A stretch of 45,393 nt of DNA. Source: Candidatus Saccharimonadales bacterium. GTDB taxonomy: Bacteria > Patescibacteriota > Saccharimonadia > Saccharimonadales > EFPC-124. A program made the position numbers and the translations under genes. The DNA lies in contig JBOHNX010000003.1 in assembly GCA_050730875.1 (NCBI GenBank), positions 1 to 45,393 of the forward strand, given 5' to 3'. The notes below the pieces were generated by a model. That model was not told where the DNA came from. It saw nothing but the letters and a program-made list of their open reading frames with translations, and searched no databases. Positions within the stretch are counted from its first letter, which is position 1. Each line of letters opens with the position of its first letter. This document shows positions 26,489-44,214 of this stretch, one piece after another.

Positions 26489-26737
26489 CACAAGACGCAA
26501 CCATACCATTCGATATAACCTTCTCGATGCCTCCACTAGATAAAAGAACACGAGGTTATACGCCTCAACAGATCAAACAATTACAAGAAACAGTTGGCGG
26601 AGAGTGGTAAAAGGCTATGCTACCACAGGCACTAATAAATTTGGTTCATTATTTTGCTTGATATTAGACTGAGCATCCCTCCACAAATTTTTTTTCCAGA
26701 ATTCAGGTCGAGCAATTTCACCCCACCACACTCACCA

Positions 26738-28216
26738 CTATATTTTTCTTAAAACATTGAACGCTTCAACCATTGCCAGAGTATCTAACTTACAGTATTC
26801 AATCAGATCAGCAAATAGTACTTCTTGATCAATATGATCCTTATCGTCAATGACTGACTGCATCCATAGCCTCTGGGCAGATGCCCCTTCTTGTATACCT
26901 AAAACCTTATACGACAACTGAGGTGCTATTACAGGTAGTACATTTTTAATACTTGCACTTCCACAGAACTTCTTATCAACAAACCACCCTTTAGCAAATG
27001 GAATCATCAGGTCAACAATACGATCATTCACTTGGTTCAGAAATTCGCTATGATCTGAGACGATTTCAGCTAGTAAGCTATTGCACTTCTTCTCGAAACT
27101 CTCATTCCAAACAATTACAGTACCTTCATCGCCTATATGACTTCGTAATGCACCCGCTAATGGTTCACAAGGATTTGTAGCCTCACGATGTAAATATTCA
27201 ACATGTCGAAGATCAGCCTCTGGGCTATCAAGAATATGTAACGAGTACTGAAATGGTAATTGCTGATAAGGTCTTAGACCGTCGAAAGCAGGAACTATAC
27301 CCCCAAGTGTTTCGTAATCTAGAAAATATAATGGGAACTGTAGGTGGCTTAGAAATTCACGTATAGGTTCATGAAGAATTAATTGCTGATCTAACTTAGC
27401 AGCTTGTACTTGTAACGCTTGCTTTGGCGACAACTTATAGTCGTCTGGTATTTCTTGCAACGTGGTAATGCCCGAACTTTCAAATGCTTCAACCTTCGTG
27501 GCATTTAAGCCACACAGATCATAGATAGTGTCTTCTGGTAGATTATTCAGGGATTTATATATATCAAGCCATTCACCAAATGCACCATTCCCTGCCAATG
27601 AAGGAGATAGATCAGGTACTTCTGAGAGCTGCATCGTAGAGAGTGCTTCGTCAACATTAGAGGAGGTATATTCCTTTTTTGCTAGTACTTTCTCAGTCAC
27701 ATCACTGATGATCGAAAACTCTTGAGGATTAATATCACCATTCCGAACATATCCATTGTTCACATGTATTACGAACACGTTCCTTACCTTAAAGCCTGCG
27801 TCTTCGATTACTTTTACTTGGAATGCTAGATCAATAATATGTTCTGGCTTTGCACTAGTACTAGATTTGATTTCATACAGATCAAAAGTCTTATCGGCAA
27901 CCACATCTATCACATCACAGATACATGTTATCTGCCCTGCTAGAAAGCGTGCTTGAAAGATCGTTTTAACTCCACCCAATAGTGCTTCAAGTGTTTGTTC
28001 TGGTAGGGCTAAGTAACTTGCATAATCTGTAAATCCAAGTCTTACACCATTATCGAAATGCTTCTCGGCATAACCTTCAAACAAATTACCTGCATCAAAA
28101 ACTGCCTGAGTATTATCATCAATGTGTGGCAATTTGTCTTTATCATTCTTCTTCAACCATAGCCATGCAGGGTGCTTTAGGTAAAGTAAGTAATCAGATT
28201 TCGACAATAGCATCAT
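26738..28216 (-). CDS. DUF2779-family protein: N-terminal PD-(D/E)xK nuclease plus a C-terminal exonuclease-like domain
   Basis: 492 aa. It starts LSKSDYLLYLKHPAWLWL. D...DLYEIKSS forms a (D/E)xK motif. YFLDYETLGGIVPAFDGLRPYQQLPFQYSLHIL is the hallmark block I associate with DUF2779. Confidence 0.6.
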   Translation of the reverse strand: MMLLSKSDYLLYLKHPAWLWLKKNDKDKLPHIDDNTQAVFDAGNLFEGYAEKHFDNGVRLGFTDYASYLALPEQTLEALLGGVKTIFQARFLAGQITCICDVIDVVADKTFDLYEIKSSTSAKPEHIIDLAFQVKVIEDAGFKVRNVFVIHVNNGYVRNGDINPQEFSIISDVTEKVLAKKEYTSSNVDEALSTMQLSEVPDLSPSLAGNGAFGEWLDIYKSLNNLPEDTIYDLCGLNATKVEAFESSGITTLQEIPDDYKLSPKQALQVQAAKLDQQLILHEPIREFLSHLQFPLYFLDYETLGGIVPAFDGLRPYQQLPFQYSLHILDSPEADLRHVEYLHREATNPCEPLAGALRSHIGDEGTVIVWNESFEKKCNSLLAEIVSDHSEFLNQVNDRIVDLMIPFAKGWFVDKKFCGSASIKNVLPVIAPQLSYKVLGIQEGASAQRLWMQSVIDDKDHIDQEVLFADLIEYCKLDTLAMVEAFNVLRKI

Positions 28217-28219
28217 AAA

Positions 28220-29371
28220 TCAAAACCAGTCCGATAAATCTTCAACAGGTTCTTCGTGCTCTTTAATTCGTTCTAGATTTTCAATCGTAGATGAAAGCTT
28301 ATTGAGTAATTCTGAATATGTCCATATCTCTAGGGTGGAGCCAAGTGAGCGTACTAAATTTTCTCGATTCTGTTTCCAGCGTGCATCATCGCTATGTTTC
28401 CCAATTACAATAATGCACTTTCCTATATGAGCTTGCCCTTTAATTCCTAATTTCTCTAACTCTGCGTCACCTGCTGGCTTTGCTTCAAGGGTACTCTTAT
28501 ACTCTAGAATTTGAGGTACAGCACGTGCTAAATGTTTGTGAATCTGATAAGTGCTAGTAGGATTATTAATGCTGCTAGATTGAGTAACTTCAAATATATC
28601 ATCTGCTGGGCTTTTCAATTCAATAAGCACGTGATCAACGTATTTAGAGCCTACCCTAGTAAGAACATCGAATTTTTTCGAACTCACCGAACCTTCACGC
28701 TGGAAATCAATGTACTCTAGCCCAAAGATCATGCACCTTTGTTGCCTGTACTTGTGGCCGTCTTCATCGAGCCAATTTTGAACATCTGTTTCAGAAGCAT
28801 TTGTCTCGATAAATTCTTCAAGCTTTTCTTTATAACTTTTAAGTAGCCTGATTGTAGATTTAGTTCTTAATAGCTCTGAAACCTCAATTCCTAGTTCATC
28901 TGCCATTTTAATAATCTCATCATTATTAGATGCATTATTCATATATTCCTTTAGCTGATCAGCAGAAATAACATGGTATGAACCGTCAAAATCACCGAAA
29001 TCGATCGTTTCTTTGAACTTAAATAGAAACGCTACCATTCTCCAAAACTCCCGATAACCGTCAGCACCGTCTGAAAACGGTATTCTTCGACTACGTGAGC
29101 TCGCAGGAGCATTTACATCGTTAAACTGATCGTCAACCCTTCGAAAGATTAATCTAGGCTGGTACTTATTGTCAGTGCCTGATCGTTTGAACTCCGTGTC
29201 GCAGACGGTCAAATTATTTCCTTGTGGTGACTTTGCAAGAATAAAGCCTTTGTAAGTTTCACCCGTAGCGTTATTGACTAAGTTGCAATCAAAATGATCT
29301 TGCTGATTTATAGTCAGCGAATCAATATCATTCTCTGGAACTGTTAGGTCGAAGTATCCAGACGTATCCAC
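28220..29371 (-). CDS. Shedu-like (DUF4263) nuclease-domain protein
   Basis: 383 aa with a GTG start 2 nt after the upstream stop and GAGGAG upstream. The C-terminal block FDVLTRVGSKYVDHVLIELKSPADDIF...AVPQILEYKS...KCIIVIGK fits the SduA PD-(D/E)xK core pattern. Confidence 0.55.
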   Translation of the reverse strand: MDTSGYFDLTVPENDIDSLTINQQDHFDCNLVNNATGETYKGFILAKSPQGNNLTVCDTEFKRSGTDNKYQPRLIFRRVDDQFNDVNAPASSRSRRIPFSDGADGYREFWRMVAFLFKFKETIDFGDFDGSYHVISADQLKEYMNNASNNDEIIKMADELGIEVSELLRTKSTIRLLKSYKEKLEEFIETNASETDVQNWLDEDGHKYRQQRCMIFGLEYIDFQREGSVSSKKFDVLTRVGSKYVDHVLIELKSPADDIFEVTQSSSINNPTSTYQIHKHLARAVPQILEYKSTLEAKPAGDAELEKLGIKGQAHIGKCIIVIGKHSDDARWKQNRENLVRSLGSTLEIWTYSELLNKLSSTIENLERIKEHEEPVEDLSDWF

Positions 29372-29373
29372 GT

Positions 29374-31587
29374 CTACTCCTCGTCATCCGTAGTATTACC
29401 GCCGTAGATCTTAAGATCAACCTTAACACTATCGTGTGGGAGATTAAGTGCATCAACTACATTCAGAACAAGCTGACGCTTTGCATTTGTATTTGTACCC
29501 GTATCGATAAAGTAGCCAGTATTGTAAATTTCTCGACTCGAACCAAAAGCTGTGGCGTCAGTCTTAATATACTTAGAGAGCCACTCATCATTTGTGATTG
29601 TATCGACAAAACGATCAGGACTACTCTCGTAAATAGCCTCGATAATCAAGTCGACTGCATCTGCCCATGTAGAAACTGATTCTTTTTTGCCAAAGACTTC
29701 GACAGACTTAATACCCTTACCCTTGAGATCGATGTCGTCGAGTAGATAAACCGATGTGTCCTCCTCGATTGGCTGGAATGAGGTTATGGGTAGTGGCCAT
29801 ATACTATTTAGCTTGGTTAGCCACCATATCTGACGCTCCTTGAGTGTAGCCTCGTTCCACTCGTCCTTTTGCTTAATCCAGTCATTGATTGGCAGTGGAC
29901 TAGCATCGAATCCGACTGCAACACCCTTAACAACAAGTGTTTTCTTGTCTTTATCCTGAAAGCCATTAAAAGCACGATTGGAGTACTCTGAATTGTAGCC
30001 AGTCAAAGTTAGGTTTGCCAACGTGTGCAGATACTCGCTATGAATACGCTCGTAATCTTCGCCTAGCATATTCTTCCAGCTCTGACCGTATTCACCGCTG
30101 TTGATAGTCTGCGGCATGATGTGTTCGATAGTGGGCTGGAAACCGTCTTCAACCATACGACGCAATGTAGCTTTCGACTCTTTGTTCTTGGCATCGGTAG
30201 ATGCTAAAACATAGCACAAGATAGAGTTACCGTGTTGCTCATAAAATGGATAAGTACGTACAGCTAACTCGAAATCATCATTGTTTGGCATCTGGGTTTG
30301 CCCCGTTTGGGTCAAGAAGATGTACTTAAGGACTTCAACGTATTTAGCCTCTTTGTCACGTCGTAAATAATCAAGAGCTTGCTTATGAAGCGACGCCATA
30401 AAACGGTCCACGCTTGTAACGTAGTAATTGACGATTATACGACGAGAGAAATATGACTCAAGTAGCTTGAACACTGTTACTAACTCATCGTCTGTGAGCT
30501 GTCCGTCTGCATGATAGCCAAGTGCTGACATTGCAAATGGAATATAAATATCGACTCTCATGTAGCGTAGTCTGAAAATTGTTTCAGCTATTCCTGCATA
30601 CTGACCAAACTCAGCACTGTTTTTTACCTTACTTGTATCTGCCAACTTCAAAAGTTCATAGAACTTTAGCGATCGCTTAATGTCGCTATAGAACTTATCA
30701 ACCAGCTCTTTCTCCTGTTCATCTCCAACATGTCTACCGAATTGCTTCTTAAACTCTGGATACACTTCAGGTAATTTAATATTCGACTGTTTCTTTGAGA
30801 TAAGGTAGTAACGGAAGAAGTCAGTAATGGGGTCTTTGTCAGTGGCATATAAAGTACGTTCTATAGGTCGCCAGTATTCGTTATAAACGTGATTACGTAA
30901 TTCATCGCCGTTCAGCATAAGGGCGAAATTACGAATCTTATCACCAGCCTCAAGCGGTTTGCCCGTAGAATTAATACTTTCGAAAACACGCTGTGGATTG
31001 TCATCGTTTGCTACCAACGTTAATACAGCAATCTCAAAGTTCTCAAGGCCGTTGATGTATTTGTCTAGCCCAGTCTTATCTGCAAAATACTCACGGAACT
31101 TAGAGTAAACAATATAAACATTATTCTGGTGGTCTTTTTCGAGCTGTGAAGCCTCACCTTTGGCATCAAAAATATGCTGCAATACTTCGTTATCGGTTGT
31201 AACAGTACGTAGCTTTACACGATTATTGTCCATGTCTTTGTTGATTAAGTACTGGTACTCAATCTTTTCAACCGTAGTATCTGGGTCTTCTATCAGTGCT
31301 GGATTCTTCTTAGCGAGGTGGTATATAGCAGAAATCATCAACAAAGAAGTGGTGACACGCTGTTGACCGTCAATAATAGCTCTTGAATAGGCTTTTCCAG
31401 TGTCCTTAACCTGAACGACAGTGCCAAAATAGTGGTTCTTCCCCTTAGCGACACACTCTTCGAGATCACTTAGAAACTCTTCGACATTCGATGTTTGCCA
31501 TGAGTAGGGTCGCTGAAATTCGGGAATTTCGAAGAACATTCCAGGAGTATAAAGAAATTCCTTCATATTACTTTGGGCAAAAATCAT
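29374..31587 (-). CDS. DUF262-DUF1524 (GmrSD/BrxU-like) type IV restriction enzyme candidate
   Basis: 737 aa. IPEFQRPYSW and IIDGQQR are the DUF262 ParB-like NTPase motifs. TIEHIMPQT...HTLANLTL is a DUF1524 His-Me finger. ATGA overlap with the upstream gene. Confidence 0.75.
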   Translation of the reverse strand: MIFAQSNMKEFLYTPGMFFEIPEFQRPYSWQTSNVEEFLSDLEECVAKGKNHYFGTVVQVKDTGKAYSRAIIDGQQRVTTSLLMISAIYHLAKKNPALIEDPDTTVEKIEYQYLINKDMDNNRVKLRTVTTDNEVLQHIFDAKGEASQLEKDHQNNVYIVYSKFREYFADKTGLDKYINGLENFEIAVLTLVANDDNPQRVFESINSTGKPLEAGDKIRNFALMLNGDELRNHVYNEYWRPIERTLYATDKDPITDFFRYYLISKKQSNIKLPEVYPEFKKQFGRHVGDEQEKELVDKFYSDIKRSLKFYELLKLADTSKVKNSAEFGQYAGIAETIFRLRYMRVDIYIPFAMSALGYHADGQLTDDELVTVFKLLESYFSRRIIVNYYVTSVDRFMASLHKQALDYLRRDKEAKYVEVLKYIFLTQTGQTQMPNNDDFELAVRTYPFYEQHGNSILCYVLASTDAKNKESKATLRRMVEDGFQPTIEHIMPQTINSGEYGQSWKNMLGEDYERIHSEYLHTLANLTLTGYNSEYSNRAFNGFQDKDKKTLVVKGVAVGFDASPLPINDWIKQKDEWNEATLKERQIWWLTKLNSIWPLPITSFQPIEEDTSVYLLDDIDLKGKGIKSVEVFGKKESVSTWADAVDLIIEAIYESSPDRFVDTITNDEWLSKYIKTDATAFGSSREIYNTGYFIDTGTNTNAKRQLVLNVVDALNLPHDSVKVDLKIYGGNTTDDEE

Positions 31588-32750
31588 GATTCCTCCTTCT
31601 TATTCGCTACGATCTGCTGTAAATCTTTGCTGTAGTGGTAATCGACAATATCACCGTTCTGAAGCATATTAACCGCCTGTTCGATAGCTAGTAACGGTAC
31701 TGAATACCATTCACTAGGAACGTACTCTCGCCCATCAGGTCCAATAATTGTCAGGTCTACTTTTGCATCTGAAAATATACGATGAATGAAGTGTTCGACT
31801 TTCTGAGGGTTATAGTCACCTGTCAGCACATAACTATCTACTACTTCAACACCTGCCATGAGGTACGTAGGGTCTTTCTCAGCGTCTTTAATGCGGTCTA
31901 CGATGGTTGTTGAGGTAAAGCCAATCTTGTGTAGATCTTTCACGTTCTGAACGGCAGGATCAGCACTCTGTGATCTCAGAATGTATATATAGCCCTTAAT
32001 CTCGTCTTCATCCGTCAGTCTTTTATAAACACTGTCTTCGTGAGCTGGCACAACTGCATAGCCATCTTCATAGAGACGCATTGATAACGAGCGTCGGTAC
32101 ATATTCGATTCTGAACCGTTCTCGTAGATCACTCGAAAACGCTCTTTATTGCGGTCGTATACCCTCTTTTTATCAGTTGCATCTACGATACGCACCATCT
32201 GACCTGCATGAACGTAGTATTTGCCTAGATGAAGTTGTTCAACTGAGACATAACGCTGTAACTTCAATTTACCTTCGCCTAGCAGTCGCTGTTGCTCCTC
32301 AAAACCACTTTTGAAAGAGTCAAAGTCTTCAGCTCGTTTGCGTTCTGCACGTTCTTTTACTGGACGAGGCTTTGAAAGAGCTTCTTTCACCTTAAATATC
32401 TGATCACCAGTGCTACTAAATAAACCGAATGCATCACTTTCAAACAATTCATCAACAGACTTCGGTGCTTCAGGTACTTCTAATAATCCCAATTCATCTA
32501 TCAGTGTCAGTGCTTCAGCTTTGGTCTTATCGGTCCGAATAGAATTCAAGCGAGCCGCTAAAGAAGCTTCGCTAATATCGTTTGATTCAATTTCTGGTAA
32601 ACGATCATTAATCTTAACAAAGTCAGTAATCTGCTGAAATGAAGCAGCCAAACGATCGTCAGCAGTGACAGGAGCTTGTTTCTTCGTCGGAACAAACATG
32701 TGTCCATCACCAGACTCAAACAGCTTTACTAGATCGTCTGATAGGTCCAT
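31584..32750 (-). CDS. GIY-YIG superfamily (T5orf172/MUG113-type) nuclease-domain protein
   Basis: 388 aa. The C-terminal block is KGYIYILRS...LHKIGFTSTTIVDRI...EHFIHRIF...EWYSV. The start shares one nt with the helicase stop (TAATG). Confidence 0.6.
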   Translation of the reverse strand: MDLSDDLVKLFESGDGHMFVPTKKQAPVTADDRLAASFQQITDFVKINDRLPEIESNDISEASLAARLNSIRTDKTKAEALTLIDELGLLEVPEAPKSVDELFESDAFGLFSSTGDQIFKVKEALSKPRPVKERAERKRAEDFDSFKSGFEEQQRLLGEGKLKLQRYVSVEQLHLGKYYVHAGQMVRIVDATDKKRVYDRNKERFRVIYENGSESNMYRRSLSMRLYEDGYAVVPAHEDSVYKRLTDEDEIKGYIYILRSQSADPAVQNVKDLHKIGFTSTTIVDRIKDAEKDPTYLMAGVEVVDSYVLTGDYNPQKVEHFIHRIFSDAKVDLTIIGPDGREYVPSEWYSVPLLAIEQAVNMLQNGDIVDYHYSKDLQQIVANKKEES

Positions 32751-34726
32751 TACTTATTTGTCTCCGTTGCTTTGGTCTGTTGCCATTTAGCATAACGAGC
32801 CGTTAGATATGCCTGTGCTTGAGCTAGGAGCTTTTCATTCTTATCAGTTGCATTTAATGCAGGATATTTACCATTATGAGCTACTACAAATGCTTTGATG
32901 TGCGGAACTAGAGCTAGTGCATCTTCATCGCTCATGTCGATACGTGAACCTGCGATTGTATCTTGTATGACACGGAACACGTCTGTACCGACTTTCTTAG
33001 ATATGACCTCAAATGCATGTTGGAACGGGTTAATTGAGTCAATGAGGTCAATGCTCAACTCGTCGAGATTAACAAAGCTGTTCGCCATCGTAATGAATTT
33101 CTTATTACCGTCTTCTGTAATTTTTGCAGTCTTAAATGCAAGGTTGCTTGCAAGGTACTGTCGAGTTACTTCAACTTCTTCATCACTCAATCCAGGCAAC
33201 TTTTCACGAATAATCTTTGATTGTAGGTGCTTCATATACTCACCCGTATGACCATTAGCGGCCGCACGTTGCACTTGTGTGTCTTGCAGAACAGCAGCGG
33301 TCAGATCTTCAAGTTCTGTAGCTAGAATATGCTTCACACGCTCTGTAGGTGGTTTCTTTAGACCTTTTACAAAGACCTCACCTGCTTTTGCTTTTTGGTC
33401 TGGTGAAGTACGAGGTGTAAACGTAAAGTTCGGTGCAAGTACCTGCTCCATAAGCAATGACGCAGTAATCGCTTTGAGCATGTTATTCACTGAAATTTGT
33501 ATGTCATCACTCGTACCGTTAGGCATAACTATAAGGTTCGTAAACTGTGCATGAGTCTTGTTATAACTATCTCTCGTACAACGTCCAATAATCTGAACTA
33601 TTTCGGTCAGACTTGCCCGATACCCAATCGTAAGAGCTTGTTCACACCACGGCCAGTCAAAGCCTTCTTTAGCCATTCCTAACGCTACGATAATATCTAC
33701 ACCGTCAATATCTTCACGGGCAACTTCACTGAGGTATTTTGTAATTTTCGCACGATGCGTTGGGTCGTCATCGACTAGGTTAGCCACTTTACGAGTCACA
33801 CCATCTTTGTCGATTACAAGCTCAAGACCTGTTTCGCTGTCTTGTGAATCCCATTCGCCTATAATGTCGTAAACCTTTTGAACTTCTTCATGCTTTCCAA
33901 CTTGTGTCGCTTCTTTTGAATTCACATTAGGTATATGAATAATCGTCTTTTTAGTCGTATCAAGCACTGCATCAAGTGCACCATCGTCTAAGTAACTTCC
34001 CTGATAAAAGTGATAACCGATTCCAAGCGTTTCTAGGTAGGTGTAGCCATTAAGCTGTTCATAGTAGGTATACGTGACCTTATCGAATTCTGCTTCATCT
34101 TCTGGTGTCAGAATCGGTACTGCATCGCCACGAAAGTATGAGCCAGTCATCGCAATAATCTGTACGTTCGAATTACGCATAACGTTATGCAATAGATCAC
34201 CTAGACGGCTATTCTCACTCACTGAGACATGATGAAATTCGTCGATAGCTAAAACTGAATCATTAAATGATTCAACATCTAGGTCCTCTGATTCAAAAGC
34301 AAAACGAAGTGTCGCATGAGTACAAACAAGTATCTTGTCTTCGCCATTCATAAAGCGAATGAACGCCTTTACCTTACTTTTATCATCACCTGTCCCTAAA
34401 CAAAGGTTGTTGCGATCTTCGACATCCCAATCAGAGAAGAAGCCCCCTTCACTGAGCGGTACATTTGAGAACGACGAACCAATAGATTTTTCAGGTACGG
34501 CGACAATGACTTTTTTCTTGCCCTGATTCATAAGCTTGTCTAGACCGATATACATTAGTGCTCGTGACTTACCAGATGCTGGCGGTGCTTTAATCAGCAA
34601 GTGATTACTGCTTCTCTTCTCGAATGCCCGACGCTGCATCTCACGCATACCCATTTCATCTGTCTTAGTAGACGCACCAGTCTTATCGTATTTAACGTCG
34701 ATGATATTCAATGTTTCTTCGTTCAT
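32750..34726 (-). CDS. SF2 DExH helicase (type III Res-like ATPase)
   Basis: 658 aa. Walker A PPASGKSRA, motif II AIDEFHH, motif III MTGS and motif VI QIIGRCTRD. ATGA overlap with the MTase stop. Confidence 0.8.
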   Translation of the reverse strand: MNEETLNIIDVKYDKTGASTKTDEMGMREMQRRAFEKRSSNHLLIKAPPASGKSRALMYIGLDKLMNQGKKKVIVAVPEKSIGSSFSNVPLSEGGFFSDWDVEDRNNLCLGTGDDKSKVKAFIRFMNGEDKILVCTHATLRFAFESEDLDVESFNDSVLAIDEFHHVSVSENSRLGDLLHNVMRNSNVQIIAMTGSYFRGDAVPILTPEDEAEFDKVTYTYYEQLNGYTYLETLGIGYHFYQGSYLDDGALDAVLDTTKKTIIHIPNVNSKEATQVGKHEEVQKVYDIIGEWDSQDSETGLELVIDKDGVTRKVANLVDDDPTHRAKITKYLSEVAREDIDGVDIIVALGMAKEGFDWPWCEQALTIGYRASLTEIVQIIGRCTRDSYNKTHAQFTNLIVMPNGTSDDIQISVNNMLKAITASLLMEQVLAPNFTFTPRTSPDQKAKAGEVFVKGLKKPPTERVKHILATELEDLTAAVLQDTQVQRAAANGHTGEYMKHLQSKIIREKLPGLSDEEVEVTRQYLASNLAFKTAKITEDGNKKFITMANSFVNLDELSIDLIDSINPFQHAFEVISKKVGTDVFRVIQDTIAGSRIDMSDEDALALVPHIKAFVVAHNGKYPALNATDKNEKLLAQAQAYLTARYAKWQQTKATETNK

Positions 34727-37539
34727 TTTGTTTTCTCCCTTTCAGTCATTTGCTCGTACAGTGTGAATAGATCTGCAAGTCGCTCTTCATCTGTATTATA
34801 AGGCTTAGAGCGGTACAATTTGTCTACTACAAGATCTAATTCATGGTGAGCTTGGCGTAAATCTTCTGGCATCTTATCGGGATCGTACATTTCAGAGAGT
34901 GTTTTACCAGTATGATTCTGTCGAGTAAATATTACGTTACGAGCTTTCGACGCAACTTCCTTCTCTTCATGCTCCAATAATGGGCGAAGTGGAAACGTAT
35001 TGTATACAAGTGAAGAAGAGTACCTATAATCAGTCTTCAATTTGCCTGATACTGATCTCATCCAAACCATATGCATCCGTGAGCTAATGATTCCAAATAC
35101 ATGTAGAGGGGCTGAGGATAATACAAAAGAGGCGTTATTTACTACCGTCTCTGGCTCGATGTAGCCTATCGGAACGTATTCTCTACGCTCCGATGAAGTC
35201 GATGGAACGATAATCGAATTGTCGGGAGGCATAACAAATTCACGAAACTGATAGGGCTTATTGGCCATGTCTTGAGCACCTTTGTCTTTGCGTCCTAAAC
35301 GGAATTCACGAACTGCATCTACTCGTTCTCTGACGAACTCATATTTGTAAGCCTCTTCGAATTCAGCATCTGAAATCCATAAGCACCATCGAGATTTCTG
35401 ACTTAGGTAATCTTGTCCACTTACAAATTGCTTAATAAATCTATCTAGTCCTGAGTGTTGAGCAACGGCTTTCTGCATAGTGTCTGTGTCAAATATGAGA
35501 TGACCGCCATCTACTGGCTTGCATCCGTATCCCATTCGTGGAATGTGAGATAGAGGCTTAGTACGCTTTATGACTATGGTGTCACTTCCCTCGCTCAAGT
35601 ATGCATTGATGTTGTCTACTTCAGCACGAACCCCGTGATTATATATATACTTCGTTGCCTTCATAGGTGTTCTCAGCCCAATAATTGCTACTGTAACGCC
35701 CGCAACATTACGAGCACCATTTGTCCATTTGAATGAAGTATGTGCAAAACCGATCTCAACATCTTTTTCAAATATATAAGGCCATAGCAATGCTACTTGC
35801 TCACCCTGACAAATTGAATTAGTAGTTACGAACGCTAACTGAGCCTTTGTACCACTTATGTAATCAGCACCTAACTTAAACCACGGAGCGATAAAATCGA
35901 GATTCTTATAATTGCTGAAGTTCTTAAATACACGTGTCATCCCCGCTTTTTGCTTTTGGTCCTGAAGGCTTGAACCTAAGTATGGTGGATTGCCTATCAA
36001 GTAAATCTCATCCCAAGTCTCTTTTTCTAGCTCAAGCTCAAGAGGTTCATCGTCAAAATCTATTAATGCACTCTGTTCTGGTCCTGTCTTAACACCAGAT
36101 TTGTGTGGCACATTCGGGCACACGTCTTTCCAGTCTAGTATCGTCGAATCACCATGAATAATGCTCGCATTATCTTTAAGTGGAATGAGCTTAATCTCTC
36201 TACCAAACTGCTGTTCGAAGTCGATGTTCATTTGATGCTTAGCAAGGTATAGCGAAAGAATTGCTATCTCATGTGGGAAGTCATCTATTTCGATACCGTA
36301 GAAGTTATCTAGCTTAATTCGAGATTCAAGCTTACCTGCTAATTGTTGACGTTTATGCTCGTCACCGTAGACTCGCTCTATGATAGCGTGTTCGATTTTA
36401 CGAAGCTCTTTATAGGCGATAATCAAAAAGTTACCACTGCCACAAGCAGGGTCAAAAATTCTGATCTTGCTGATTCTATCCCAAATTCTTAGAAGTCTCT
36501 GGTCATTGTCATAATACTTATCAAACTCTTCACGTAGCTGATCAAGAAAGAGCGGTTCAATAGTCTTCATGATGTTCGGAACACTCGTATAGTGCTGTCC
36601 GTGACTGCTTCGCTGCTCTTCATCAACAATGCTTTGAAACATAGAACCGAAGATGTCAGGATTGATCTCTGCCCAATTCTGATTACCACAGTCAAGAATG
36701 AGCTTACGTGCTTGAGCGTTAAATTTAGGGATACCAATGCCGTGCTTTTTGGTGTCAAAGATCGTACCGTTGACATATGGGAACTTACTAAACGGACTCG
36801 TAAACCCTGCCTTGTTTTCAGTATCGAGTGCATCAAACAGAGTTATCAAGAAACTGTCTAAATCACTGCCATCGGTTTGGGTGTAATCTTTGATAGCATT
36901 CGTGAACATCGTTTGTTCATCACGACTGAATACTCTGGTGTCTTCTGCGAAGAAACAAAACAATAAACGACTAAAAAATACGTTCAAGTCATGTCTGAAA
37001 TTGCTGTGTGGGTCAGTTAGTTTCGCACGATTGACCTTCTCGATCTCAGCATACAAATCTTTCATCTTATCAGCAGCACGACGATCAGCTACAGCTTCAG
37101 TCTTCTCGTCAGTGATTTCATCGCCTGTCCAACCGTAGAAAAAGTCTACATCACGATCAATGTCACGCAAATTAATATCAAGACGACTGTTCTTTTTTGT
37201 ATCTACAGCTACTAGACGTTCGTAGTCTGAAACAATCAGGTATCTAGGGTTATAGCGAACGACTAACGGGTCTACCGCCAATTCTTCAGCAGTAGAGTGC
37301 AGCTTATTAGCATCAGCTACATGCTTGAAGTAGACTACTCCCCTTTGTAATATTTCATTATCTTTATCTTCAGCAAGATTCAATGATCCTTCACGAAGCT
37401 TTGTGATGGCAGATCGTGCCCGACCGTATGCAGCTAATAGCTCGTAAACGAAGTCGATGTTGTATGTTTCACGGTTGGCAATTTCAGCCACATTATTCTG
37501 TGCTTCTGCAAATGTAAGTCTAGCCATTTTGTTTGCCAA
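34723..37539 (-). CDS. MmeI/PglX-like gamma-class N6-adenine DNA methyltransferase with TRD; N-terminal nuclease motif apparently degenerate
   Basis: 938 aa. Motif I FDPACGSGNFLI and motif IV GNPPYLGS. The N-terminal PRYLIVSDYERLVAVD aligns by eye with MmeI PRYVLVCDFQRFRLTD. Where MmeI has D...EMK, this protein reads VVYFKHV. Confidence 0.75.
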   Translation of the reverse strand: MANKMARLTFAEAQNNVAEIANRETYNIDFVYELLAAYGRARSAITKLREGSLNLAEDKDNEILQRGVVYFKHVADANKLHSTAEELAVDPLVVRYNPRYLIVSDYERLVAVDTKKNSRLDINLRDIDRDVDFFYGWTGDEITDEKTEAVADRRAADKMKDLYAEIEKVNRAKLTDPHSNFRHDLNVFFSRLLFCFFAEDTRVFSRDEQTMFTNAIKDYTQTDGSDLDSFLITLFDALDTENKAGFTSPFSKFPYVNGTIFDTKKHGIGIPKFNAQARKLILDCGNQNWAEINPDIFGSMFQSIVDEEQRSSHGQHYTSVPNIMKTIEPLFLDQLREEFDKYYDNDQRLLRIWDRISKIRIFDPACGSGNFLIIAYKELRKIEHAIIERVYGDEHKRQQLAGKLESRIKLDNFYGIEIDDFPHEIAILSLYLAKHQMNIDFEQQFGREIKLIPLKDNASIIHGDSTILDWKDVCPNVPHKSGVKTGPEQSALIDFDDEPLELELEKETWDEIYLIGNPPYLGSSLQDQKQKAGMTRVFKNFSNYKNLDFIAPWFKLGADYISGTKAQLAFVTTNSICQGEQVALLWPYIFEKDVEIGFAHTSFKWTNGARNVAGVTVAIIGLRTPMKATKYIYNHGVRAEVDNINAYLSEGSDTIVIKRTKPLSHIPRMGYGCKPVDGGHLIFDTDTMQKAVAQHSGLDRFIKQFVSGQDYLSQKSRWCLWISDAEFEEAYKYEFVRERVDAVREFRLGRKDKGAQDMANKPYQFREFVMPPDNSIIVPSTSSERREYVPIGYIEPETVVNNASFVLSSAPLHVFGIISSRMHMVWMRSVSGKLKTDYRYSSSLVYNTFPLRPLLEHEEKEVASKARNVIFTRQNHTGKTLSEMYDPDKMPEDLRQAHHELDLVVDKLYRSKPYNTDEERLADLFTLYEQMTEREKTK

Positions 37540-37812: not shown

Positions 37813-37849
37813 TTTTGGCCAGATTTTCGACCTCTCAACGTCTTTTTCC
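37813..37849 (+). repeat. direct repeat copy 1 (37 nt)
   Basis: TTTTGGCCAGATTTTCGACC is identical to 38511-38530. The following 17 nt match with small indels. Confidence 0.8.
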
Positions 37850-38510: not shown

Positions 38511-38547
38511 TTTTGGCCAGATTTTCGACCCTCTAACGCTATTTTTC
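38511..38547 (+). repeat. direct repeat copy 2 (37 nt)
   Basis: See copy 1. It abuts the stop codon (38548-50) of the Mrr-domain gene. Confidence 0.8.
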
Positions 38548-39705
38548 TTATTTTTTCGGGTCAATCGTCGGCAGTACCACAGTAATTAGCTCGTCTGTGT
38601 CTTGTTGTGTCCATTGCTTCTTTGTTGCTGGCTCTTGATCTATATCTATGTGATTATCAACTGGCGTAACCACCCCTTCATCATCGTCAGGGATAAGACC
38701 CTCTAGCTTGTGCAGAAGGTTTTTATGGTGCGTTAATATAACGTCCGATCTACGAGCCAATGTTTTAGCGGCATTCGTAAACAAATTATCCGACACGACT
38801 ACGGCATAATCAGTCCTATAGAAGATTCGCCCACTGACAATCTCTTGGACGGCTTTTGTACCTACGGGACGATTAAACAGCTTGCATTGAATAGCAAACG
38901 TCTTACCCTCTTTACTGGCTATAACATCTACACCGTAATCACCGCTACCTCGTGTTCTTTTCGCGCTGAACCCTCTAGCGTGTAGCAGCTTTCTTATGTA
39001 TTCCTCGTACTTGTACGGGTCATTGCCAATGAACTCAATCGGCAACGATGTATTCTTCGACCCCTTGGTTACAGGCTTACTGCTGTACATCGAAAAAAAG
39101 AGCATGAACACTACGCCCGCCAGATGAGTAACCTTCATGGGTCTGTTTGATTGCAAATCACCGTCAAGATTTAGTGTAAGTAGGCTGGCTCTATTAAGGG
39201 GGTCGTCTGAACCATTTTCTACAGAGACACTTACAACACCTTTGCCAACATTTCCATTCAGTGAGTACAGCAGTTCATCATTCATGTGATCGTCCCTACC
39301 GTCCCTAAGTAAACCAGCAACATACTTATCAGCAACAACAGTATCGGTATCTTTGTATTTTATGCCGTATAGATTTTCTGTGATAAAGGGGGGAGCTGGC
39401 AGTAGTGTGAAGCTGAACTCTTTTACCTTTCCACTATCTACAAGCTTATTGAGCGTAGGTAAAACGACTTTATGACTGAAATATATAATCTCTTTATCAA
39501 ACTTATAATCGATAAATTTGTGCCCGTAATCGTCTTCATCTATGTGCTGTTCAAACTTATCCTCTAATATATTCCAGTGCTGTCTCATGGATGCTACGAT
39601 TGCGGTCGTAAGCAGTCTCCAGTCATCATGCAAAGATGTGCGTAGCTGTGCTACTGCCTCATTTTTCTTCGACCTCTTGCTTGAGAATAGCGTTTTTAGG
39701 TTCAT
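38548..39705 (-). CDS. protein with a C-terminal Mrr-type restriction endonuclease domain and an unknown N-terminal region
   Basis: 385 aa. GSGDYGVDVIASKEGKTFAIQCKLF fits the Mrr_cat D...(Q/E)xK core. There is a central hydrophobic stretch, HLAGVVFMLFFSMY. Confidence 0.65.
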   Translation of the reverse strand: MNLKTLFSSKRSKKNEAVAQLRTSLHDDWRLLTTAIVASMRQHWNILEDKFEQHIDEDDYGHKFIDYKFDKEIIYFSHKVVLPTLNKLVDSGKVKEFSFTLLPAPPFITENLYGIKYKDTDTVVADKYVAGLLRDGRDDHMNDELLYSLNGNVGKGVVSVSVENGSDDPLNRASLLTLNLDGDLQSNRPMKVTHLAGVVFMLFFSMYSSKPVTKGSKNTSLPIEFIGNDPYKYEEYIRKLLHARGFSAKRTRGSGDYGVDVIASKEGKTFAIQCKLFNRPVGTKAVQEIVSGRIFYRTDYAVVVSDNLFTNAAKTLARRSDVILTHHKNLLHKLEGLIPDDDEGVVTPVDNHIDIDQEPATKKQWTQQDTDELITVVLPTIDPKK

Positions 39706-39711
39706 CTGGTT

Positions 39712-40182
39712 CTACTGGCAATAACTTGCAATCTCAGCGTTAATACCTGTACCCTTGAGAGCTGTTACTAATGCACTGTAATCTGAATTATTGTCGGTTG
39801 TAGCGAACCACGTTGATCCGTCAGTAACAACTTGATAAGAAGTGCTAATGTAGCCCTGCTCACAAGCTTGCTTGCGTTGATTCAAGCTAGTCTGCCAATT
39901 ACTAGGCTCCTCAAACTTGTATGCAACACCGTTCAAAGTGTAGGTATTGCCATTTATCGGTCCTTCACTACCAGTCGCACCAATCGTAGACAACGCACCA
40001 CTTAACGTAACTGCTGGCGTTTCTTCTTGTTGGGTTTCTTGCGATGAACTGGCTGCATTGTTCGTGCTGTTTGTGGTAGCTGTATTTGTACCACTGTCCT
40101 TCTTAGTCAAGAAGTAAAATGCACCAGCACCTACTACCAGCAAGGCTGCAACTATTGCGATGATTGTTGTTTTGCTTTTCAT
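39712..40182 (-). CDS. small membrane-anchored/secreted protein
   Basis: 156 aa with AGGAG 7 nt upstream. TM helix IIAIVAALLVVGAGAFYFL, then a T/N/S/Q-rich linker and a globular C-terminus with 2 Cys. It ends 6 nt before the Mrr-domain gene. Confidence 0.6.
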   Translation of the reverse strand: MKSKTTIIAIVAALLVVGAGAFYFLTKKDSGTNTATTNSTNNAASSSQETQQEETPAVTLSGALSTIGATGSEGPINGNTYTLNGVAYKFEEPSNWQTSLNQRKQACEQGYISTSYQVVTDGSTWFATTDNNSDYSALVTALKGTGINAEIASYCQ

Positions 40183-42319: not shown

Positions 42320-42511
42320 ATGATAGACAAGAAATATTACACAGTACAGGAAGTTGCCGACTTATTAAAACTTCACTGGCAGAGTGTACTAACCTACATA
42401 AAAAACGGAGAGCTAGAAGCCGTAAAACTCGGTAAGGGTTACCGTATCAGTCAACAAGCTCTGGATTCATTCATAGCAAAACGCACAACCAAAACGAAAG
42501 GAACAAAATAA
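42320..42511 (+). CDS. xis: excisionase-family (MerR-like HTH_17) DNA-binding protein, candidate recombination directionality factor
   Basis: I prefer ATG 42320 (GGAG upstream). YYTVQEVADLLKLHWQSVLTYIKNGELEAVKLGKGYRIS is the classic excisionase-type HTH. TAATG overlap with the recombinase start. Confidence 0.7.
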   Translation: MIDKKYYTVQEVADLLKLHWQSVLTYIKNGELEAVKLGKGYRISQQALDSFIAKRTTKTKGTK

Positions 42512-44214
42512 TGTTGAGAGCGGCACTATATGCTCGTGTGAGCACAGAACTACAAAAAGACGAACAAACTGTCAAAAGCCAGCTATCTGAAGTCAAGAAT
42601 GCAATCATAGATGACGGTAACGCACTTATTGAAAGTTGTGAATACATTGATGAAAGTTGGTCTGGTGCAATACTGGAACGCCCTGCCCTTGATTTAATGC
42701 GTCAAGATGCACGTGAGAGAAAGTTCGATATTTTATACGTGTACGACAAAGGACGTCTAGCTCGAAAGTACGTATACCAAGAAATAGTAATTGAAGAACT
42801 AACCAATTTAGAGATTAAATTTAAGAGCTTGCACGACATTAACGGAAGCACTCCAGAAGAAGTAGTCATGGGCGGTGTTATGGGTCTGTTCCACGAATAT
42901 GAGCGTGTAAAGATTACTGAACGTTTTCGTATTGGTAAGCTCAATAAGGTTCGTTCTGGCAAGCTGCTGGGCTATCAAGCCCCTTACGGCTACGATTACA
43001 TACCTATCAAGGGCAAGGGCTTAGATAAGATCAACGGCAAATTTGTGATCAACGAAGAAGAAGCCAGGGTAGTCAAAATGATTTTCGAATGGATTGGCGT
43101 TGAATGCGTATCAATTAAAGAAGTTATTCGTCGCTTGTACGATCTAGGGATACCGCCTAAGAAACAAAAACGTGACACTTGGACTAATGGTCCAATACAC
43201 CGCATGCTGAAAAATGAAACCTATATCGGTAAGCACTTCTACTACAAGTCTGAGAGCGTAATGACTAAAAACCCTATGGCTAAGACACAGAAGAAGTACC
43301 AACACCGTCATTCAATGAAGGGCAGTCGTAAAACCCGACCACGTGATGAATGGCTAGAGGTAGAAGTAGATCGTATCATCAGTGATGAATTGTTTCAAAA
43401 GGCCAAAGCACAGATTAAAAGCAACGGTAAACTTAGTCAACGCTTCAAGAAAAACCCCTACCTTTTTAGCGGTTTAATATCTTGTCCGTGTGGTGCAAAC
43501 AGAACTGGTGAAGGACAGAATGGTCATTTCTACTACCGTTGTAACGATCGCTTACTGAAATTTCCCAAGCCTCGTTCTTGCTTTGAAGCTGGTGTGAACG
43601 TGCAGGTATTAGACACTGTTGGCTGGGCTAAACTCTGTGAATTAATGACAGACCCTACCCTGTTGCAACAGCAACTTGACCGTTATGCAGAAGAAAAGAA
43701 GCTACTGGCTGGTCAAAGCCCAAAGAAAGATGAATTGAGAATGCAGGTCAAAGCCTTAGAGCAAGAAGAACGTCGCTACGTGAAAGGTTGGGGTCAAGGC
43801 ACGATGTCAGAGACTGTATATACAGATCAGATGAATAGTGTTGCTAGACGCCGTAAGGAGCTTACAGACATGCTTAATAAGCCTGAGGCGGACAAGTTAG
43901 CACAATTACGTGACATTGATTTAGAAACATCTGTAGAACCTTTCAAGCAGTATCTAAGTAATCTCGGCTACGAAGATAAGCTTTTTACTGTAAGGAAGAT
44001 TGTTGATAAAGTAATAGCAACGAAGGAGAACGTAAGAATATGCGGAAAAATACCAGCATATGCTACTTCATTAACTGTAAACAAGGTCGGGTTAGATGTT
44101 GAGCATAGCGATACAAGAGACACAACACAAGCAATTAATCAAGAACAGGTTGGGTTGAATGCTAAGCATTGGCATTGTCGGCCTACCAAACGTAGGCAAA
44201 TCGACGCTGTTTAA
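42511..44214 (+). CDS. large serine recombinase (integrase); its 3' end crosses attR and overlaps ychF
   Basis: 567 aa. AALYARVSTELQ carries the catalytic Ser. Resolvase and recombinase domains, a zinc ribbon (CPCGANRTGEGQNGHFYYRCNDR) and a coiled coil. The last 18 codons lie inside ychF in another frame. Confidence 0.9.
   Translation: MLRAALYARVSTELQKDEQTVKSQLSEVKNAIIDDGNALIESCEYIDESWSGAILERPALDLMRQDARERKFDILYVYDKGRLARKYVYQEIVIEELTNLEIKFKSLHDINGSTPEEVVMGGVMGLFHEYERVKITERFRIGKLNKVRSGKLLGYQAPYGYDYIPIKGKGLDKINGKFVINEEEARVVKMIFEWIGVECVSIKEVIRRLYDLGIPPKKQKRDTWTNGPIHRMLKNETYIGKHFYYKSESVMTKNPMAKTQKKYQHRHSMKGSRKTRPRDEWLEVEVDRIISDELFQKAKAQIKSNGKLSQRFKKNPYLFSGLISCPCGANRTGEGQNGHFYYRCNDRLLKFPKPRSCFEAGVNVQVLDTVGWAKLCELMTDPTLLQQQLDRYAEEKKLLAGQSPKKDELRMQVKALEQEERRYVKGWGQGTMSETVYTDQMNSVARRRKELTDMLNKPEADKLAQLRDIDLETSVEPFKQYLSNLGYEDKLFTVRKIVDKVIATKENVRICGKIPAYATSLTVNKVGLDVEHSDTRDTTQAINQEQVGLNAKHWHCRPTKRRQIDAV

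Follow-up and report, generated by a model that had tools for sequence, protein, structure and literature searches.

SduA and DUF2779 are probably independent modules of one restriction-type operon in a Saccharibacteria genome

Shedu nucleases (SduA, DUF4263 family) have already been described within restriction operons and in a two-component form (10.1101/2023.08.10.552793; PMC12577705). Gu et al. (10.1101/2023.08.10.552793) located 602 of 5,499 Shedu genes inside restriction-modification (R-M) systems, reported that 5,401 of 7,687 Shedu proteins carry N-terminal domains, and suggested that Shedu complements restriction. The two-component form, KELShedu, consists of a dsDNA-binding protein (KELA) in complex with a DUF4263 nuclease (KELB) (PMC12577705). 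SduA senses DNA ends, and the E. coli protein binds these ends and nicks near them (10.1101/2023.08.10.552762). The DUF2779 family combines a Cas4-like domain with a DEDD exonuclease containing a Tyr (PMC3985635; PMC13621843), and its homologue MMSYN1_0389 is quasi-essential in the minimal Mycoplasma JCVI-syn3.0 (PMC13621843). Here, we analyse a 45,393-nt stretch of a Candidatus Saccharimonadales bacterium (contig JBOHNX010000003.1; referred to as the window), in which a gene for SduA (28220..29371, minus strand) is followed by a gene for a DUF2779 protein (26738..28216, minus strand). A preliminary description, made from the sequence alone, proposed that the two genes form a two-gene variant of Shedu. 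Across the loci compared, SduA and DUF2779 behave as independent modules and DUF2779 occupies the cap position of defence operons. We consider it probable that the pair in the window represents independent modules within one restriction-type operon rather than a dedicated two-component Shedu, with DUF2779 being a portable, partner-agnostic terminal dual nuclease upstream of which cassettes are exchanged by recombination.

Relatives of the window SduA were examined at 86 loci (16 from genomes and 70 from metagenomes), of which 30, including the window, contain a full-length SduA with enough downstream DNA to judge the following gene. DUF2779 is directly downstream of SduA in 7 of these 30 loci (the window, L002, L003, L019, L005, L020 and L007). 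If Shedu here were a dedicated two-gene variant, with the two proteins paired obligately or in fixed stoichiometry, as sensor and effector or as a single complex that both nicks DNA and processes the ends, close relatives of SduA would not be expected to dispense with DUF2779; however, it is missing from SduA relatives with 91% (L004), 82% (P0013/L091), 74% (L021), 72% (L022 and L023) and 70% (L006) identity. The operons themselves also differ. SduA is located between type I restriction genes (HsdM-HsdS-SduA-HsdR) in 11 loci, follows YeeA-YeeB-YeeC with no DUF2779 in three (L022, L023 and L091), and is found in a Dcm methylase-NgoFVII-Z1-SduA-DUF2779 arrangement in a further three, while in L013 the DUF2779 gene comes after hsdR and not after SduA. 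The SduA family is chiefly a passenger of restriction operons, mostly of type I, and in the window of a YeeABC and GmrSD operon; this habit agrees with the published share of Shedu genes in R-M systems. Two of the loci without DUF2779 have an alternative tail gene, encoding a 546-547-aa protein without a Pfam match directly after SduA (L022, 6742-8382, gap of 5 nt; L023, 9143-10786, overlap of 1 nt). In L003, which is from a complete Saccharibacteria genome (CP064992.1, 1882-6652), the YeeA and YeeB homologues are present in several pieces and frames, due to either gene decay or assembly indel errors, and YeeC, GmrSD, SduA and DUF2779 are intact.

The neighbourhoods of DUF2779 genes were surveyed in a census set of 301 Saccharimonadia genomes. 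PF11074 (DUF2779) is present in 85 of the 301 genomes (92 hits, 28% of genomes) and PF14082 (SduA_C) in 11, and the two are adjacent only in the window genome (G000) and in G185, corresponding to 2 of 92 DUF2779 hits and 2 of 11 PF14082 genes. A third genome carries both families far apart, and SduA genomes carry DUF2779 no more often than the background (3/11 versus 85/301), which argues against a dedicated pair. In a sample of 40 DUF2779 loci of Saccharimonadia, with open reading frames (ORFs) called by a simple longest-ORF rule, a co-directional defence operon is directly upstream of DUF2779 in at least 19, separated from it by -41 to +76 nt and mostly by no more than 20 nt. These upstream operons are type IIG R-M (8 loci), type III-like with ResIII and an N6_N4 methylase (4 loci), GmrSD (2 loci, plus a GmrSD-like gene in one type IIG locus), nSTAND3-Mrr (2 loci), AbiP2 reverse transcriptase (1 locus), YeeABC with Thoeris genes (1 locus) and SduA (1 locus). 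The gene immediately before DUF2779 is equally varied, and encodes a DUF3644 protein, a HARE-HTH nuclease, HerA, a protein with a weak HEPN match, a TIR protein or a DUF6508 protein. On the downstream side of DUF2779, the next two genes mostly have housekeeping functions (BipA four times, sigma-70 three times, and topoisomerase (TopA) and ABC-F twice each); therefore, DUF2779 marks the end of defence operons, where ordinary genes begin. GmrSD is within 5 kb of DUF2779 in 7 of 64 hits, a rate akin to the 2/11 seen for SduA. The neighbour count proposed in the preliminary description thus gave a divided answer, with DUF2779 strongly associated with defence operons and SduA only a rare neighbour, and a dedicated two-gene variant is not supported from either direction: SduA precedes few DUF2779 genes, and DUF2779 follows fewer than a quarter of the SduA genes that could be judged.

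Two further comparisons bear on the pairing. The closest homologues of the window DUF2779 (69-77% identity) end type I, type ISP with PIF1 and UvrD, and type III with GmrSD-N operons, none of them with SduA. In addition, L107 (G187:C1) has the same frame as the window, with YeeA, YeeB and GmrSD followed by one variable gene and DUF2779, but the variable gene encodes a DUF6508 protein. This 145-aa protein (L107, 8321-8758, minus strand; E 2.6e-32) lies exactly in the SduA slot between GmrSD and DUF2779, and DUF6508 may be a defence accessory interchangeable with Shedu. Homologous small proteins without a Pfam match are also found directly 5′ of DUF2779 in a type I operon (L133, 8498-9001, 167 aa) and in a type IIG operon (L104, 8400-8999, 199 aa).

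Phylogenetic analysis of DUF2779 was based on a careful maximum-likelihood tree of 50 proteins, in which the SduA-linked DUF2779 genes form at least four separate supported lineages and the state of having SduA upstream needs four changes. The window and L002 proteins group together (100/100) and are joined by copies from type I and type ISP operons (99/95). Monophyly of the SduA-linked DUF2779 genes, a group defined by gene context but after a quick tree had been seen, was rejected by an approximately unbiased test (log-likelihood difference 1025, p 1e-4), as opposed to the common descent that a dedicated pair would imply. Comparison at the nucleotide level located the breaks in homology. L007 and L094 share 87.8% nucleotide identity (blastn) over a stretch that begins 16 nt into DUF2779 and takes in the ABC-F and kinase genes further downstream (L007 from 11165 onward, L094 from 6134 onward), and their upstream operons are unrelated (Dcm-NgoFVII-Z1-SduA versus type IIG-DUF3644). 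Conversely, the cassette from Dcm to SduA is common to L007 and L109, with homology ending at the end of SduA. Nucleotide homology between the window and L133 or L134 covers the DUF2779 gene alone, and between the window and L003 it extends approximately 520 nt into DUF2779 and then falls, which places that crossover inside DUF2779. The breakpoints of these cassettes thus probably coincide with the 5′ end of DUF2779 or are located within it, and those that fall between SduA and DUF2779 speak against a dedicated pair. These patterns fit cassette exchange between DUF2779-capped operons with DUF2779 serving as one homology arm, and the L007 and L094 alignment indicates that the 5′ end of DUF2779 probably acts as a recombination boundary for such exchange.

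DUF2779 homologues were also sought in plasmids and phages. Twenty-nine plasmid records contain a homologue, and in five of the seven inspected DUF2779 adjoins or is near genes for ATPases, nucleases or WYL proteins, the neighbours including SbcCD-like ATPases, a NERD protein, WYL regulators, a PD-(D/E)xK protein, a PLD nuclease and a dGTPase; no ATPase, nuclease or WYL neighbours were seen in the other two, from Helicobacter and Salinibacter. These contexts, while anecdotal, fit a defence or mobile-element setting. There was no match in 50,697 phage records, and a phage origin of DUF2779 was rejected on this basis. DUF2779 could instead be a stand-alone defence gene that clusters in islands and acts independently of its neighbours, as its patchy distribution, its location on islands and plasmids, its absence from the phage records and its highly diverse neighbours would allow. 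However, a strong bias to the last position, in the direction of the operon and often overlapping the preceding gene, is unusual for mere co-location, and some targeting principle would be required if a dual exonuclease were constitutively active and had neither sensor nor regulator; we therefore regard a stand-alone function as quite improbable. Among the plasmid neighbours, a PD-(D/E)xK protein upstream of DUF2779 in an Aliarcobacter butzleri plasmid was considered as an SduA candidate and rejected (hhalign probability 0.2%). The Aliarcobacter cryaerophilus plasmid pM830MA (L137, 1-13904) encodes an SbcD-like protein and a 1192-aa SbcC-like ATPase, followed by a 954-aa ATP-binding protein whose end is overlapped by DUF2779, with a dGTPase downstream, and may thus hold a defence cluster outside the phylum of the window.

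With SduA and DUF2779 as independent modules of one operon, a relay from YeeABC and GmrSD through SduA to DUF2779 can be proposed, because Shedu has been suggested to complement restriction and because a Cas4-family nuclease, ACE1, boosts interference by a long-A prokaryotic Argonaute (pAgo) that also works alone (PMC12094033). YeeABC and GmrSD would cut unmodified or modified foreign DNA and make the first breaks; SduA, by analogy with the E. coli protein, would bind the new DNA ends and nick near them; and DUF2779 would then resect both strands from the ends, its Cas4-like domain acting on one strand and its DEDDy domain in the 3′-5′ direction on the other, so that the damage becomes irreversible. 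From domain content and gene position, we infer that DUF2779 probably resects DNA ends made by the upstream nucleases. More broadly, and more tentatively, DUF2779 might be a generic finishing nuclease that is recruited in cis by the DNA-cutting immune systems of Patescibacteria, and perhaps of other phyla, and that makes restriction, GmrSD, Shedu and other systems more efficient by two-strand resection at breaks. In this tentative scheme its coding sequence would double as the homology arm for cassette swaps, and it would represent an accessory class that neither the PADLOC v2 models nor the literature searched includes.

Several points weigh against the modular interpretation or restrict it. 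In the SduA tree, every DUF2779-linked SduA falls in one 10-member clade (seven with DUF2779 and three without), which is the best argument for the preliminary description, and the adjacency is kept across two operon types (YeeABC-GmrSD-SduA-DUF2779 and Dcm-NgoFVII-Z1-SduA-DUF2779) and four DUF2779 lineages, which could reflect selection for some DUF2779 behind this SduA. The 3-nt spacing between stop and start is compatible with stoichiometric co-expression. These same observations, together with the precedent of KELShedu as a two-component Shedu, are what favours a dedicated pair; set against the independent histories and contexts of the two genes, they leave a true SduA partnership as the least likely of the three rival explanations, and a very remote one. 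Of the preliminary description, a recurrent adjacency is therefore supported, in most of one SduA clade and in two operon types, but a dedicated two-gene variant or a sensor/effector pair is not. In addition, approximately half of the sampled DUF2779 genes have no upstream defence operon, and this, with the quasi-essential Mycoplasma homologue (PMC13621843), indicates that the family also has non-defence roles. The neighbour types were in part not called protein by protein but taken from family tallies and BLAST clusters, the sampling covers Saccharimonadia and seven plasmid records, and the role in resection is drawn purely from domain content and position.

The non-defence roles could be extended to the whole family, such that DUF2779 is a DNA-repair or recombination end-processing nuclease, possibly involved in nucleotide salvage, and its 5′ flank is merely a hotspot or homology arm for defence cassettes. 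The housekeeping genes downstream, the L007 and L094 alignment that places DUF2779 in the conserved flank, the loci that lack a defence operon, a fold like that of the repair nucleases AdnAB and Exo5, and the quasi-essentiality of MMSYN1_0389 in JCVI-syn3.0 (PMC13621843) are all in keeping with this explanation. It is nevertheless unlikely, since DUF2779 is found in just 28% of Saccharimonadia genomes, the defence-linked copies make up whole clades of their own, the window copy is inside a low-GC mobile island, plasmid copies are beside WYL, ATPase and nuclease genes, and the defence neighbours are co-directional, upstream and mostly within 20 nt of the start, fitting co-transcription.

The host of the window is a Saccharibacteria genome of 0.95 Mb (G000, contig 3). 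SduA and DUF2779 are the final two of six minus-strand genes arranged head to tail, as the preliminary description had noted in placing the pair at the distal end of a defence operon, with junctions that in order are overlaps of 4, 1 and 4 nt followed by gaps of 2 and 3 nt. The first gene (34723..37539) encodes a 938-aa YeeA/DnmA-type, MmeI-like DNA methyltransferase (Pfam MmeI_N, MmeI_hel, MmeI_Mtase, MmeI_TRD and MmeI_C, E down to 2.4e-98; PADLOC REase_MTase_IIG, E 1.6e-287), and is overlapped by 4 nt by the gene for a 658-aa YeeB-type DEAD/ResIII helicase (32750..34726; Pfam DEAD and ResIII), whose position is conserved in relatives of 85-99% identity (L002, L003, L022, L023 and L103). The third gene (31584..32750) encodes a 388-aa YeeC-type T5orf172/MUG113 (GIY-YIG-like) protein (Pfam MUG113, E 3.3e-10; T5orf172, E 1.3e-8); the YeeA-YeeB-YeeC label of these three genes was confirmed at the level of domain content. 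The fourth (29374..31587) encodes a 737-aa GmrSD type IV restriction enzyme with a DUF262 N-domain and a DUF1524 HNH C-domain (Pfam GmrSD_N, E 6.8e-33; GmrSD_C, E 6.6e-22; PADLOC Orf5 and HEC-06). SduA (383 aa, GTG start) and DUF2779 (492 aa, ATG start) follow, and the junction between them reads TGG TTT TGA ttt ATG ATG, which agrees with the spacing given previously; the 3-nt TTT spacer (28217..28219) contains no obvious Shine-Dalgarno sequence. A consensus scan detected no terminator-like site between the two genes and one candidate operon end, a terminator-like hairpin approximately 170 nt past the DUF2779 stop (26551..26567, minus strand), although promoter and terminator scans of the region gave no more sites than shuffled sequence. 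No cas genes are present in the window.

G+C content drops from approximately 0.51 to 0.41 across approximately 25 kb to 44 kb of the window, and a gene for a large serine recombinase (42511-44214) adjoins ychF. On these two grounds, which also set its extent, this low-GC stretch is a mobile island. Its left junction, a possible copy of the ychF start near 26610, was unconfirmed, as a search with a 29-nt pattern of the ychF start, allowing up to 3 mismatches, hit ychF itself only. Upstream of the operon, a 35-nt direct repeat (80% identity; 37813-37847 and 38511-38545) flanks an ORF-free segment of approximately 0.7 kb, beyond which is a gene (38548-39705, minus strand) whose 385-aa product ends in an Mrr_cat nuclease domain (E 1.4e-21), preceded by approximately 225 N-terminal residues with no assignment. 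A 156-aa gene (39712-40182), whose product starts with a hydrophobic stretch, ends 6 nt upstream of it.

The assignment of the fifth gene to DUF4263 stands. SduA_C (PF14082) matches residues 230-356 with 42.7 bits against a cut-off of 27, and 11 PADLOC SduA models match (best E 1.9e-13, aligned residues 8-358). A profile of 34 SduA relatives found B. cereus SduA (8TI8; E 2e-9), with an alignment that begins at residue 139, and a Foldseek search with the AlphaFold model, which is of moderate confidence (predicted local distance difference test score, pLDDT, 71), gave 8TI8, 8TI9 and E. coli SduA (8PS5) as the sole significant PDB matches (probability 1.0, E 2e-7 to 1e-4). In this model, a beta-rich N-terminal domain (approximately residues 1-125), which had no PDB match in the fold search, is followed by a helical linker (approximately 137-207) and the PD-(D/E)xK nuclease. 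The N-terminal region of approximately 230 aa that had been called long and unrelated is thus the normal layout of a Type-1 Shedu. PD-(D/E)xK motifs I-IV of B. cereus SduA are E204, D249, E264/K266 and Q295 (10.1101/2023.08.10.552793), and those of the window protein are E194, D235, E251/K253 and Q287, all invariant among the 34 relatives; D235, E251 and K253 align with the D..ExK of 8TI8, and E194 and Q287 were assigned to motifs I and IV by position. Sequence and model together predict that the window SduA is a standard Type-1 Shedu nuclease.

The sixth gene is likewise a DUF2779 gene as originally described. PF11074 matches residues 297-422 of its product with 130.6 bits against a cut-off of 23.3, and the motifs DLYEIKSS (112-119), FLDYET (298-303) and PFQYSLH (321-327) are all present, with E115, K117, D300, E302 and F322-S325 invariant among 35 relatives. 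The two outcomes that were named as fatal to the pairing proposal, a lack of defence neighbours for DUF2779 and failure of DUF4263 in hidden Markov model (HMM) searches, were not observed: DUF2779 is linked to defence operons, and DUF4263 passes the HMM searches. The AlphaFold model of DUF2779 has a pLDDT of 93.6 and a predicted template modelling score of 0.85. Its N-terminal half is a Cas4/RecB-like PD-(D/E)xK domain in which D101, E115, K117 and Q133 are conserved as the active-site set, and the best Foldseek matches are Cas4 (8D3L, E 4e-5), followed by 4R5Q, 4IC1, the AdnAB nuclease domain, human Exo5 and Argonaute-associated ACE1. In the C-terminal half, D300, E302, E375, Y474 and D478 are invariant and fit a putative DEDDy-type 3′-5′ exonuclease site; the fold search with the full-length model matched the N-terminal half only. 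The Cas_Cas4 HMM match is weak and under the cut-off (E 0.0055), no conserved cysteine is present in the N-terminal domain, such that the Fe-S cysteines of Cas4 are absent (C475 is the only invariant cysteine of the protein), and the DUF2779 profile gave insignificant DnaJ matches only against PDB sequences. PADLOC v2 has no model for DUF2779 apart from the weak Cas4 match. A role for DUF2779 as a stand-in for an absent RecBCD/AddAB was rejected as stated, as the genome encodes an AddA-like protein of 1109 aa with UvrD-helicase and PDDEXK_1 domains. The gene for this protein (G000:C1:201943-205272; L136, 5943-9272, minus strand) has no directly adjoining ORF of at least 300 aa, and a YcaO-nitroreductase fusion is next along the stretch.

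The claim of a new two-gene Shedu, which would have extended the known systems modestly, does not hold. The broader pattern matters more, namely an uncharacterised dual nuclease that closes quite different defence operons in Saccharimonadia, with cassettes exchanged at its start. If DUF2779 does help the upstream nucleases, it would be a shared and exchangeable helper for many immune systems, and also a practical marker for new defence cassettes in the ultra-small bacteria of the candidate phyla radiation (CPR). In these bacteria, Shedu mainly supplements restriction operons, which fits the idea of Shedu acting on restriction-made DNA ends.

RecBCD and AddAB degrade restricted DNA from its ends. 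The role proposed for DUF2779, exonucleolytic destruction of the ends made by restriction, is similar, but DUF2779 has no helicase motor and, given the AddA-like protein of this genome, replaces no missing enzyme. MMSYN1_0389 matches the window protein in architecture (a Cas4-like domain and a DEDD domain containing Tyr) and shares its conserved D..ExK and D-E-(D/E)-D residues, whereas the Mycoplasma gene is chromosomal and quasi-essential. The papers that treat the domains of the family (PMC3985635; PMC13621843) do not describe a terminal position in defence operons for DUF2779. ACE1 with long-A pAgo, and Cas4 with Cas1-Cas2, resemble the present locus in that a nuclease of the Cas4/RecB fold is encoded beside a DNA-targeting immune enzyme, and ACE1 is a precedent for an optional helper nuclease. 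DUF2779 differs from both in the absence of the four Fe-S cysteines, in its extra DEDDy domain, and in being tied to no single partner family; compared to Cas4 proper, it lacks both the four cysteines and an association with cas1 and cas2.

KELShedu is comparable in having a DUF4263 nuclease with an adjoining gene in the same operon. However, KELA is encoded upstream, binds DNA and is in complex with KELB, while DUF2779 is encoded downstream, is a predicted dual nuclease, and is not conserved with SduA but follows many other defence genes. The closest counterpart of the locus is Type-1 Shedu within R-M operons, with which it shares a predicted DUF4263 nuclease with motifs I-IV, the layout of N-terminal domain, linker and nuclease, the best sequence and structural matches (8TI8 and 8PS5) and the R-M operon setting. 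The differences are a beta-rich N-terminal domain without a PDB counterpart, a family centred on Patescibacteria, and a host operon that is YeeABC with GmrSD and not a classical type I-III system. The window SduA thus adds a member to an established family, in a type of setting that has been described before.

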